NCBI GenBank assembly: GCA_963777505.1
Contig: CAVZQN010000004.1
Coordinates: 1,440,001 to 1,504,000 of the forward strand
From: an uncultured bacterium
GTDB lineage: Bacteria; Acidobacteriota; HRBIN11; JAKEFK01
Length of the DNA: 64,000 nucleotides
Reading direction: 5' to 3'
Below are positions 1-4,175 of this stretch, one piece after another (positions within the stretch are counted from its first letter, which is position 1; each line of letters opens with the position of its first letter). The position numbers and the translations under genes are program-made. The notes below the pieces were generated by a model, which was not told the origin of the DNA, did not search any database, and saw only the letters and a list, made by a program, of their open reading frames with translations.

Positions 1-936
1 GGGATTGAGCAAATGCAGCCATAACATGCATCAACATGCCCTGATGTAACCGTTTTTGTTGAATCAGTGATGGAGGCACAAACACATCACCTTGTGATGG
101 CTGAAGATCTTCATCAAGACGTCGGAGAAATCCGGAACCTGAAGGAATTAGTTCAAGGACACCGGTAAATTCCTGTTCAGGACCTTGTACGGCTGCTGGT
201 CCTGTTGTGTGAACGGGGACAGGACGTTGGTGTGGCTGAGAATGACGCGGCGGTTGATGACGTTGATTCACAGGATGTTCGCGGCGAATATGTCGCGGAC
301 CTTCTCCACTGGAGTGTCGGTTTTCATTTCGATGATGCGGTCCAGGAGAATCACTTCGTTGATGCCGCGGTCCAGGGGAATCACTTCGCTGATGTCGCGG
401 TCCTGGCGAATCACTTCGTTGATGCCGCGGTCCTGAGGAATCACTTCGCTGATGTCGCGGTCCAGGGGAATCACTTCGTTGATGCCGCGGTCCTGGCGAA
501 TCACTTCGTTGATGCCGCGGTCCAGGGGAATCACTTCGTTGATGCCGTGGTCCAGGGGAATCACTTCGTTGATGCCGTGGTCCAGGCGAATCATTGCGTT
601 GATGTCGGGGACCCGGAGAATCATTTCGATGATGACGCGGTCCCTCTGCGCGATCATGCCGCGGATTTTGACCATCGATCCTGGCGGCACACCTTCGGTC
701 CGGTCACGTCGCACACCTTCAGTTCGATCGTGACGCACACCTTCGGTTCGGTCACGTCGCACACCTTCGGTTCGATCATGACGCACACTTTCGCTTCTTG
801 GGTGTCGAGGTCGATCGCTTTGGGGGTGTTGACCCTCGCTACGAAGTGGTCGATTCCCTTCGGATTGTTGGTGCCGCTGACCGCTGCTCCGTGAATGCTG
901 CTTCTGCCGCCCCTGATTTCGATTCTGTTGGTTCAT
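1..936 (-). CDS. rho: Transcription termination factor Rho, N-terminal part (truncated by window edge), with long repeat-rich disordered N-terminal extension; one frameshift at about 680-703
   Basis: The ATG at 936 opens a Q/R/H-rich frame. After a one-base shift near 690, a minus frame open from 703 to 1 reads DGQNPRHDRAEGPRHHRND(SPGPRHQRSD)n...EQEFTGVLELIPSGSGFLRRLDEDLQPSQGDVFVPPSLIQQKRLHQG. This matches the Rho RNA-binding motif GVLEILxDGFGFLR-x11-DIYVSPSQIRRFNLRTG with the same 11-residue spacing. The ATPase domain lies outside the window. Confidence 0.82.
331..643 (-). repeat. Coding tandem repeat, 10 full copies plus one partial copy of a 30-nt unit (RSDSPGPRHQ)
   Basis: Unit GATGCCGCGGTCCAGGGGAATCACTTCGTT recurs every 30 nt from 331 with no spacers; variation is mostly synonymous in the minus-strand RSDSPGPRHQ frame. 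Confidence 0.95.
687..788 (-). repeat. Coding tandem repeat, about 4 copies of a 24-nt unit (R[H/R]DRTEGV)
   Basis: GCACACCTTCGGTYCGRTCRYGWC recurs every 24 nt. Confidence 0.9.
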
Positions 937-1144
937 AGTACAGGTAAGAAAAGACTCACGATTATAACCGCAAAGATGCTGAGTTGGAAACGAAATTATA
1001 AGTTAGGTAAACAGAGCATTGAAAGCGAGTGTCTAAGAGTCTTATAATCTGATAGTCTTATGTGACCGTTAGTGCTGCAAATGCTTAGTTTAACCATGAA
1101 GCTCATGAATCTTTGTGGTTGATCATACAGGGATTGGAGAAATT

Positions 1145-2341
1145 ATGGAAACGAAAGATTATGTTCAGCTCGAAGAACGTTACAGTGCTCACAATTATCA
1201 CCCATTGGACGTGGTTATTGATCGAGCTGAGGGAGTCTGGGTTTACGATGTTACAGGCAAAAAATATCTTGATTGCCTGAGCGCATATTCAGCCGTTAAC
1301 CAGGGACATCGGCATCCGCGCATCGTTAAAGCTCTGGTGGATCAAGCCAATCTTGTGACACTCACATCTCGTGCGTTCCGTAATGATCAGTTCGGACCCT
1401 TCTGCAAGGAACTCTGCGATCTAACCGGCTATGAGATGGTGCTTCCGATGAATTCAGGTGCAGAAGCTGTAGAAACGGCGGTAAAGACTGCCCGCATGTG
1501 GGGATACCGGGTTAAAAAAGTTGAAAAAAATAAAGCTGAAATTATCGTTTGCAATGATAATTTTCATGGACGAACAACTACGATCATCAGCTTTTCAACA
1601 GAGCCGCAATATCGAGAAGATTTTGGTCCGCATACGCCAGGATTTGTCTTTGTTCCTTACGGAGATGCTGAAGCATTAGGAAAGGCAATCACGCAGAACA
1701 CGGTTGGATTTCTTGTTGAGCCGATTCAAGGTGAAAGCGGCGTGAAATTTCCCCCGGATGGTTATTTGAAACAAGCTGCTGAAATCTGCAAAAAAAATAA
1801 TGTCTTGTTTATTTCTGATGAAATTCAATCAGGTCTTGGACGTGCGGGTAAATTATTCGCATTGGATCATGATGGAGTTCGAGCAGATATTGTGATTCTT
1901 GGAAAGGCTCTCGGAGGCGGCGTCTATCCCGTTTCAGCCGTTATTTCGTCGCGTGAGATTCTTGGTTTATTTCGTCCTGGAGATCATGGCAGCACTTTTG
2001 GTGGAAATCCGATAGCCTGTGCTGTTGCCCGAGAAGCTTTGCGCGTCATTGTTGACGAAAATTTAGTTCAGCGTTCTGCAGAGCTTGGGCAATATTTTCT
2101 AAACAAAATGAAGAATCTCTCCAGCCCGCACATTCAGAATTTACGCGGCCGCGGACTGTTTATTGGAATTGAACTGAAACCCGAAGCCGGAGGAGCAAGA
2201 CGTTTTTGCGAAGCACTCAAGGAACGTGGAATGCTTTGCAAAGAAACTCATGAACACGTTATTCGTATTGCACCGCCACTGGTAATCAGTCAGGAAGAAA
2301 TCGATTGGGCTTCTGATCAAATTCAAGCAGTATTGGCCTGA
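1145..2341 (+). CDS. rocD: Ornithine--oxo-acid aminotransferase
   Basis: [57 protein letters not shown]; ATG at 1145 follows a GGAG RBS. Confidence 0.95.
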
Positions 2342-2420: not shown

Positions 2421-4175
2421 ATGCGGAATACGATCCGCATCGTTCTTGCCCTCTTTCTTATCATTCTCGTTTTTGCAAACTACAACTCTATCCGCATCGT
2501 TAATCGCGCAGTCAGTGTTTTAAATGATGACTTGCAGCAGCGGGCCAGTCTGATCCTTCGCGAAATGATCATCAAGCTTACGGAGAATTACTTTAATCTC
2601 AGTAATCAATCCCAATTAGATCAGAACCTTCGCAGATGGTTGGATCTGTATGACATTCAAGGAATTGTCGTTTACGAAACATCTGGGACGGCTGAAGCAA
2701 TGATGAGCTATAACCTTCCTAAGAATCTTGCAGAGCCGCTCAAAATACTGGGCAATCGGAAGACTGCAATCGTTGATAAATATTTGCTTGTTACCGGACA
2801 ATTTGTCAGCGGTACAGAACTTCGGAAAGTCGTACTTCTTTTTGATATCGAACGATACATACGATTTGAACGTTCAGCAAAAGCTGTCAGCTACGCTGGA
2901 CTTTTATTGATGATTCTCGCAGGGCTTGCTGTGTTGTACTTTTTTGAATCAGCTTTCCGGCCATTCCGGATCCTTTTGCAAACGGCTCGTTCCGCACCGG
3001 CAGATATTCCCGCACACGAAAATCGAAATGAGGCGGACTTCTTGATTCAAACATTCAACAGTGTGATTGGACAATTGAAAACAAAAGAACAGGAACTCGC
3101 AAAACTTCATCTAAGTGAAAAGGCTCGTGCAGATGATGTCGCCAGGTTGAATCAAGATTTAATTCGAAGTATCAGCAGCGGCCTAATCCTTGTTGATCAA
3201 ACAGGAAGAATCAATGTATTCAACGAGGCCGCTCAAACAATTTTAAGAATCAGTGCAAAGGAAGTGCTGGCGCGTCCGTACGGAGAAGTGATGCAAAAGT
3301 TGTCTCCTGCATTTAAGGCCGATCTGGATCGGTGTTTGAATGAGAGGACAAACATAAACCGTGCAGAACTTGAAGTTCATACTCAAGATGCTGAGCTGCG
3401 TTATCTTGGAGCGAGTATCATGCCGCTTCAAGACCGGCAGCAGAATTTTGCTGGTGCTATTTGTCTTTTCACTGACATTACCGAATTTAAATTGTTGCAA
3501 AAGCATATGGCGGAAAAAGAAAAGTATGCGAGCCTCGGCGAAATGGCCGGAGGCGTTGCTCATGAATTCCGGAATGCGGTTGCTACAATCGCCGGATATA
3601 TGCAACTACTTGAAAACAAAATTGAACCAGATCAAAAAGAATACACAATACCTGTTCAAAAGGAACTTCAATCTCTTCAAAAAGTCGTCAATGATTTCCT
3701 GTCATTTGCCCGGCCTGTTGAATTGGAGATGGGTAATGTTCTCTTGCGCGAACTGTTAATGGAATGCATGGAGGAAGTTAAAGTCGCATCTTCCAATGAA
3801 GTTGATTTCAATATCGAGGGAGTATTTCCTGAAGTTCGTGGCGATGAACGCATGTTGCGCCAGATTTTTACGAATCTAATCCGGAATGCGGCTGAATCAT
3901 TGGATGGGACAAATCGAAAAGGGAAAATTGAAATCAATGGTTCGTCCGCATTGAGTGGGAAGTTTTGCTTAGTCGACATTTCGGATAATGGCATTGGAAT
4001 TCGAAATGAAGACATATCTCGTATATTTGCTCCTTTTTATTCTACAAAGCGGGAAGGTGTGGGCCTTGGTTTGGCGATAGTTCAAAAACTCGTGCTACAG
4101 CATAATGGGACAATCACGGTTGAAACCGGGGAGAATGGAAGCATCTTCCGCGTCCAATTGCCTGTGAATACGTAA
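2421..4175 (+). CDS. Membrane sensor histidine kinase with PAS domain (NtrB/PilS-like)
   Basis: Two TM segments, PAS domain, H-box VAHEFRN, N-box NLIRNA, DNGIG, GVGLGL. Confidence 0.92.
   Translation: MRNTIRIVLALFLIILVFANYNSIRIVNRAVSVLNDDLQQRASLILREMIIKLTENYFNLSNQSQLDQNLRRWLDLYDIQGIVVYETSGTAEAMMSYNLPKNLAEPLKILGNRKTAIVDKYLLVTGQFVSGTELRKVVLLFDIERYIRFERSAKAVSYAGLLLMILAGLAVLYFFESAFRPFRILLQTARSAPADIPAHENRNEADFLIQTFNSVIGQLKTKEQELAKLHLSEKARADDVARLNQDLIRSISSGLILVDQTGRINVFNEAAQTILRISAKEVLARPYGEVMQKLSPAFKADLDRCLNERTNINRAELEVHTQDAELRYLGASIMPLQDRQQNFAGAICLFTDITEFKLLQKHMAEKEKYASLGEMAGGVAHEFRNAVATIAGYMQLLENKIEPDQKEYTIPVQKELQSLQKVVNDFLSFARPVELEMGNVLLRELLMECMEEVKVASSNEVDFNIEGVFPEVRGDERMLRQIFTNLIRNAAESLDGTNRKGKIEINGSSALSGKFCLVDISDNGIGIRNEDISRIFAPFYSTKREGVGLGLAIVQKLVLQHNGTITVETGENGSIFRVQLPVNT

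Follow-up and report, generated by a model that had tools for sequence, protein, structure and literature searches.

A putative second Rho with a tandem-repeat N-terminal tail, interrupted by a frame break, in an uncultured acidobacterium

Rho proteins that have no N-terminal domain and carry a region of more than 25 amino acids before the RNA-binding domain have been described as Group B, or type 2d (PMC11347177). Group B Rhos are usually a second copy (Moreira et al., PMC11347177), and genomes with such pairs belong mainly to the Actinomycetota (62) and the PVC group (30). The additional regions, where basic, are suggested to bind or melt RNA, and mixed hexamers are considered possible (PMC11347177). 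The string 'acidobacteri' does not occur in the main text of that source.

Several Rho proteins contain long disordered regions. The disordered region of Bacteroides thetaiotaomicron Rho (BtRho) is associated with phase separation (PMC10284900, PMC13269538). Short tandem peptide repeats occur in the disordered region of Lachnospiraceae Rhos, with fourteen copies of YQSRGD in Clostridium symbiosum and five of RNYQD in Blautia obeum, according to a 2023 commentary (PMC10284900). The N-terminal insertion domain of Mycobacterium tuberculosis Rho (MtbRho) is basic and disordered and influences the selection of RNA (Rut) sites (PMC13650167). Full-text searches of the literature on Rho with both tandem repeats and disorder, or on Rho in Acidobacteriota, returned nothing on the family described here, and in two Rho reviews or surveys we found no functional data on second Rhos without the N-terminal domain.

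Here we describe a rho-like gene at the left end of a 64,000-nucleotide stretch of DNA (the window) from an uncultured member of the Acidobacteriota (assembly GCA_963777505.1, contig CAVZQN010000004.1, positions 1,440,001 to 1,504,000). By its sequence the gene encodes a second, divergent Rho paralogue with an intact ATPase and an OB fold but with no N-terminal helical bundle, preceded by a tail of tandem repeats in which the reading frame is broken.

Repeat arrays and reading frames

All repeat-tail features of window positions 1-936 are on the minus strand. Coordinates are those of the window (window = L001 - 1500, where L001 is the locus numbering; G000 is the assembly holding the window). 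Frame B is the Rho frame, with minus-strand codons starting at coordinates that leave remainder 1 modulo 3, and frame A is the frame of the ATG at 936. The features are as follows.

1..175, minus strand: first part of the Rho OB-fold domain (residues 176 to about 233 of the frame-B product, P0001; PF07497 matches residues 179-250)
1..685, minus strand: frame B coding part, comprising the remaining 172 aa of the tail, followed by the Rho core; the gene runs past the left end of the window
268..271, minus strand: GTGA overlap, in which GTG 271-269 starts the public 401-aa call and TGA 270-268 stops the 222-codon frame A ORF
329..628, minus strand: ten 30-nt units R[SN]DS[PS]GPRHQ in frame B, with 20 synonymous to 5 non-synonymous differences
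662..687, minus strand: interval with the -1 frame break; frame A matches relatives to 688 and frame B from 670 or 664
688..783, minus strand: four 24-nt units RHDRTEGV / RRDRTEGV, open in frame A only
688..936, minus strand: frame A coding part, ATG 936-934 and 83 codons from MNQQNRNQGR... through the fourth and final R[HR]DRTEGV; residues 1-84 of the related protein P0016 are collinear with it
961..990, minus strand: promoter-like site TTTCCA-18-TATAAT (L001 2490-2461), whose -10 hexamer (966-961) precedes the ATG by about 25 nt

The arrays noticed in the preliminary description are real and lie on the minus strand: Tandem Repeats Finder places one array, with a period of 30 nt, at 337-643 (10.2 copies, 88% matches) and another, with a period of 24 nt, at 687-797. 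In frame B the 30-nt array is translated from 628 to 329 as ten decamers, six of which are exactly RSDSPGPRHQ, two RNDSPGPRHQ and one RSDSSGPRHQ; the last is degenerate. As had been proposed, this frame continues without a stop into GVLELIPSGSGFLR...DVFVPPSLI, and the full Rho core follows to the left of the window, where the gene ends at G000:C4:1439066 (L001 566). After a TGA at 703-701, frame B stays open for 545 codons until the Rho gene ends. There is no ATG, GTG or TTG in this frame between that stop and GTG 271, and the sole near-cognate start codons are ATC at 679 and ATT at 289.

Frame A begins at the ATG at 936, a start also found in a genome of the same genus (G001) and in a metagenome locus (L024). 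It passes through the four R[HR]DRTEGV units, reads NEVIPLDRGI-type text across the 30-nt array and stops at TGA 270-268. The preliminary description had both repeat families in a single tail of about 260 aa. Both families are present, but they lie in different frames and do not form one ORF in this sequence: ATG 936 and the RxDRTEGV units are in frame A, and across the 24-nt array frame B is interrupted by four stops.

The block GCGGTTATAATC at the promoter-like site is kept in the same-genus locus of G001 and in L024. A search of the locus against Rfam gave one sub-threshold match, to mir-577, which is noise. The tail-coding region (329-936) has a G+C content of 55-60%, compared with 37-47% for most of the flanks and about 40-54% for the core of the gene itself, which we attribute to the Arg, Pro and Gly codons of the tail.

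The differences among the 30-nt units show which reading has been constrained. Relative to the consensus, the ratio of synonymous to non-synonymous differences is 20:5 when the units are read in frame B, as against 1:23 for frame A and 4:21 for frame C, in agreement with the earlier observation that copies differ mostly at silent positions of a minus-strand frame missing from the ORF list. Counting each distinct state once, 11 of 15 are synonymous in frame B, compared with 24 of 90 random single changes (binomial P = 2e-4), so that the proposed codon-level constraint on the decamers in the Rho frame is upheld. One of the three plus-strand frames has a similar bias (19:6), but it shares third positions with frame B and contains a stop in every unit. 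Upstream of the break, all three between-sample variants (748, 769 and 784) are synonymous in frame A; within frame B two of three (248, 294 and 296) are synonymous. Both sets come from single contigs with a depth of about 2. The repeats of relatives, read in the frame of their own ORFs, are also biased toward synonymous differences (L024 8:7, P = 0.008; G001 7:5, P = 0.012). Because of the unit differences, the openness of the 24-nt units in frame A alone and the between-sample variants, the reading of the tail under selection is frame A followed by frame B.

The Rho core and its relatives

Profile searches extended past the left end of the window bear out the preliminary assignment of the gene to Rho. 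The frame-B product, P0001, matches NF006886 at 422.4 bits (cut-off 315), Pfam ATP-synt_ab (PF00006) at 84.2 bits and Rho_RNA_bind (PF07497) at 34.9 bits (cut-off 27; residues 179-250), the last rising to 39.4 bits in the genome scan and weak by comparison with the 118.8 bits of the canonical copy. It scores 410.8 bits against TIGR00767 (cut-off 509.45) and 340.7 bits against NF041509 (cut-off 628), aligning to the latter over residues 180-540. The low Rho_RNA_bind score is what might suggest RNase R or another cold-shock-domain protein in place of Rho. That identity, to which we give next to no probability, is refuted by the full Rho ATPase core that follows the OB fold, by the NF006886 score, and by the alignment of residues 178-541 to solved Rho structures with E values of 1e-82 to 3e-93.

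The motifs APPRTGKT, DERPEEV, LLLDS and SGTRKEE align to the E. coli and Thermotoga maritima Rho chains and are invariant in all nine aligned sequences. We take them to be the functional residues of the Rho ATPase (Walker A, catalytic, Walker B and arginine region, respectively). The OB fold has diverged further. In a gap-free alignment with E. coli Rho, F64, R66 and D78 are kept, Y80 is replaced by F, F62 by S, E108 by G and Y110 by S; together with the RNP1 sequence GFGF, these seven positions presumably constitute the primary RNA-binding site. GFGF is not conserved in the family, where RNP1 reads GSGF, GAGF or GIGF.

No match to Rho_N (PF07498) was found in the frame-B or the frame-A product, while the canonical copy scores 68.8 bits. 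In an AlphaFold2 model built from a nine-row alignment, residues 1-172 have no secondary structure, helices included, and a pLDDT of about 30, followed by OB-fold strands at 176-246 (pLDDT 73-86) and a folded ATPase. The absence of the N-terminal helical bundle had been suggested from the letters of the window, as had the possibility of a second copy, and the same genome does encode a canonical 417-aa Rho on contig C3 with Rho_N, Rho_RNA_bind and the ATPase.

Close relatives carry the start, the repeats and the core in one frame. In G001, a genome of the same genus, an uninterrupted gene of 517 aa begins MNQNNRSQGR..., continues with approximately eight RRTDQGHP-type units (a 24/48-nt array) and leads into the Rho core. 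The metagenome locus L024 encodes 495 aa with four 16-aa units, HSRSTGPRHPDSRSQE, and P0009 (516 aa) has start, repeats and OB fold in a single frame. The protein P0016, found with the frame-A product, begins MNQQNRNQGR..., contains approximately fourteen RHDR..G.-type 8-aa units and then reads GVLELISSGSGFLRR, again in one frame. Its residues 1-84 are 60% identical to frame A residues 1-83 (E 3e-24), and its residues 44-279 are 59% identical to frame B residues 13-260 (E 7e-77). The start MNQ.NR.QGR, followed by repeats and then by the OB fold, is common to G001, L024, P0009 and P0016.

The tail had been predicted to vary in length, and both its length and its repeat unit do differ between relatives. 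Within one genus the tails measure 155, 170, about 196 and about 255 aa, and the long tails are made of units of 8, 10 or 16 aa. In other genera of the family the tail is short (45-65 aa), rich in His, Arg, Gln and Pro, and free of repeats.

The paralogue is present in five of six other genomes of the family at 64-74% identity and is absent from G005 (83% complete); both Rho copies occur in four of the six (G001, G003, G004 and G006). The core of the second Rho is approximately 70-88% identical within the family, and the best matches in 24 genomes outside it are at 51% or less. The scan of genome contigs excluded the family of the window itself, and the relatives that it names are more distant, for example MAGs of Blastocatellia and Planctomycetota. 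We built a quick, unrooted FastTree phylogeny of 127 rows drawn from 170 Rho ORFs (164 with a core of at least 330 aa), omitting metagenome loci L061-L103. The ten rows of the family form one clade (SH-like support 99), which is nested in a 57-row set of second Rhos (support 92) that are nearly all from Acidobacteriota or metagenome contigs. This set stands apart from the canonical copy.

Two other second Rhos of the phylum, L010 (G022:C407) and L011 (G013:C7), have GC-rich tails that include stretches of 10-13 consecutive arginines. A basic tail thus seems to be a general feature of these paralogues, although the tail sequences are very different.

The gene next to the Rho paralogue (window 1115-2341, plus strand) is an ornithine aminotransferase-like gene transcribed in the opposite direction, away from it, and called as a 408-aa ORF from a GTG; its relatives start at the methionine of METKDY. 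A promoter-like TTGAAA-18-TATAAT precedes it at 1019-1048. This neighbour is kept beside the paralogue in G001 and G002 and is not found there in G003 and G006. Further along (2421-4175, plus strand), a 584-aa ORF carries HEF.N and G.G.GL motifs that make it look like a membrane sensor histidine kinase.

The frame break

Joining the two parts of the gene needs a -1 shift, from frame A to frame B, between 688 and 670; the ATG at 936 and the 24-nt units are in one frame and the decamers and the core in the other. A tblastn search with P0016 matches the DNA in two pieces that differ in frame, one from 936 to 688 and the other from 670 or 664 onward. The only homopolymer of at least four bases between 700 and 640 is AAAA at 669-666. 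A frame-B unit, RHDRAEGP, starts at 661 and prolongs the RHDRTEGV series of frame A, and twice the unit phase shifts by 25 nt, from 711 to 686 and from 686 to 661, which could mean two events instead of one missing base. When the 5' regions of G000, G001 and L024 are aligned as DNA, the repeats are too divergent to place the indel.

Sequencing data cover the surroundings of the break. Assembly of four sequencing runs gave six short contigs of low depth, which cover 125-366, 451-510 and 715-1100 and so skip both the break and most of the 30-nt array. Among the 18 sequencing runs listed, none contained half or more of the locus words, and none was an RNA run.

We looked at how often neighbouring genes are split across frames. 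As guides we used 123 ORFs of at least 200 aa from a 200-kb syntenic stretch of G001 (G001:C3:640001-840000). For 102 of these guides G000 holds an orthologue of at least 60% identity, and three of the 102 are split across frames there. With the roles of the two genomes exchanged, 10 of 97 genes prove to be split in G001. Breaks in G000 outside the window are located at G000:C4:1511183-1511199, 1412283-1412285 and 1414037-1414060. Frame breaks are common in these assemblies, which favours an artefact at this locus, and findings of broken genes in the G000 and G001 genomes need read support.

Public protein records give related observations. P0005 and P0016 each contain nonsense text inside the conserved ATPase or linker region and so have frame breaks of their own. 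In P0006, a public call from a close relative, the first 20 residues resemble an out-of-frame reading of the tail. The calls P0007 (401 aa) and P0005, from other assemblies of the same 90% species-level cluster, start at the same GTG as the call in the window. Independent random errors would account for these common GTG starts less well than would a systematic error or a break that is real and shared. However, any break within the tail gives such a call, because frame B offers no other start codon.

We consider it somewhat more probable than the contrary that the break arose as an indel in base calling or assembly, or very recently by mutation, in an otherwise functional single ORF. A fixed break that has uncoupled the tail from the core is possible but rather unlikely. 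The gene would then yield a 222-aa product from ATG 936, out of frame with the core, and a short-tailed 401-aa Rho by re-initiation at GTG 271, or would be dying. The sequence as given does contain no single ORF, three gene calls of the cluster (that of the window, P0007 and P0005) share the GTG start, the stop and start overlap as GTGA, and the tails of 45-65 aa in other genera indicate that a short-tailed form is viable. Against an old break, codon constraint persists on both sides of it, in the decamers of frame B (20:5) and in the three of three silent variants of frame A, both of which would have been erased, and downstream of the break frame A shows a ratio of 1:23. Further, the GTG is not conserved in G001, L024 or P0016, gene callers may choose it merely for want of an upstream start in frame B, and approximately 3% of neighbouring genes in the assembly have frame breaks.

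The signs of selection in both frames, one on either side of the break, would also be expected if the break were real and bypassed by programmed -1 frameshifting, by transcriptional slippage or by a near-cognate start at ATC 679, so that the tail would be made conditionally. An AGGTG-like stretch does lie 9-10 nt before ATC 679, but this stretch belongs to every 24-nt unit. No X XXY YYZ slippery heptamer is found in frame A between 721 and 600, the longest homopolymer is AAAA, and the intact relatives do without any such device; we regard recoding as improbable. To a combined form of these readings we assign an equally small chance: a real, species-wide break from which a short-tailed 401-aa Rho is made by re-initiation at the GTGA, along with a rare full-length form upon slippage near 688-662. 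Were this two-form reading true, the disordered RNA-contact or condensation module of a Rho would itself be under translational control. Very improbable indeed is a genuine, separate protein encoded by the 222-codon frame A ORF (936-268, NEVIPLDRGI) upstream of the 401-aa Rho. It is the longest ATG-started ORF of the region and its stop overlaps the Rho GTG, but its repeats differ by 1 synonymous to 23 non-synonymous changes, its exact product is absent from a collection of 15 billion proteins, its sole homologue (P0016) matches residues 1-83 alone, and its only Pfam match is a sub-threshold repeat artefact.

The tail and its place among known Rhos

The ancestral gene was one ORF of about 620 codons from ATG 936, because close relatives carry the same start, the 8-aa repeats and the core in one frame. 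Lineage-specific tandem duplication of 8-aa RH[DQ]R-type units probably built the tail in this genus, with a 10-aa derivative, RSDSPGPRHQ, being duplicated as well in this species. We infer this derivation from the decamer itself, which looks like the 8-aa unit with a two-residue insertion.

The conceptual tail of approximately 255 aa (83 from frame A and 172 from frame B) consists of 20% R, 13% P, 12% S, 11% H, 10% Q, 9% G and 4% N. It has a net charge of +21, 27 histidines and no aromatic residues. With 81 of 255 residues charged (R, K, D or E; about 32%) and 14% Q or N, the prion-like character entertained in the preliminary description is unlikely. The lack of aromatic residues argues against homotypic condensation but not against coacervation driven by RNA. 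Condensation, and tuning by pH, metal or phosphorylation as also proposed there, are possible but speculative.

The core of the second Rho would act as a hexameric RecA-type RNA translocase with an OB-fold RNA-binding domain. From its composition and from what is described for other Rhos, the tail may provide a non-specific, multivalent and charge-driven contact with RNA. It could take over the role of the bundle's basic patch, which is absent here, and make up for the partly degenerate primary RNA-binding site. In this way it could determine on which transcripts the second Rho is loaded, whether by itself or in mixed hexamers that include the canonical Rho. The many histidines would make the charge of the tail sensitive to pH. 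The family in Acidobacteriota offers a natural series of tail lengths, from 45-65 to about 255 aa, on a nearly invariant motor, and thus a convenient system in which to study how a disordered basic tail contributes to the loading of Rho.

The public call is 401 aa long and the tail is missing from protein databases because of the frame break and the lack of a start codon in the repeat frame. Surveys of called proteins will consequently class the second Rho as a short form. In searches against proteins of 299-952 aa, the frame-B tail (residues 1-175) matched only its own 401-aa call and an unrelated fish protein, and no intact protein with the decamer array was found in that size range.

Among described Rhos, the protein resembles NCBIfam NF041509 (paralog_Rho2, 'Rho, short form') in being a Rho paralogue without the N-terminal domain, but with 340.7 bits against a cut-off of 628 it is not a member. 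The prion-type Rho of Clostridium botulinum is characterised by a prion-like domain rich in Q and N with few charges; the tail described here has 10% Q, 4% N and 81 charged residues in 255. MtbRho has a basic disordered region in common with it, and the MtbRho structure PDB 7oqh aligns to residues 34-538 of the query, a span that includes low-complexity residues of the tail. However, MtbRho retains its helical bundle and is essential as the only Rho of its organism, whereas the protein described here is a second copy predicted to have no bundle. To our knowledge, the insertion domain of MtbRho is not built of tandem repeats.

BtRho similarly has a long, disordered and biased region attached on the RNA-binding side of Rho. 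It is the only Rho of its organism and essential, its disordered region lies between the bundle and the OB fold, and its condensates have been shown, while in the present case the region is a predicted N-terminal tail with no bundle. The Lachnospiraceae Rhos share short tandem peptide repeats in a disordered region of Rho, of independent origin. Their repeats are rich in Y, Q, R and D and are part of a single canonical Rho; those described here are rich in R, H, S and P, contain no aromatic residues and, unlike those of Lachnospiraceae, are found at the extreme N-terminus of a paralogue without the bundle.

The closest likeness in kind is to the Group B or type 2d Rhos. As in these, a second rho exists beside a complete one, the bundle is missing, the ATPase residues are kept, the RNP1 sequence GFGF is not conserved, and a biased, predicted disordered leader of more than 25 aa precedes the RNA-binding domain, measuring here 172 aa (frame B) or about 255 aa. 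Unlike in these, the leader consists of near-perfect tandem copies of a unit that varies among the species of a single genus, and the gene is broken by a frame shift in the assembly. The second Rho described here is of the Group B or type 2d kind, a kind already in print (PMC11347177). What this family adds to it is a repeat unit that turns over rapidly inside a single genus, together with a tail that is hidden from protein databases.
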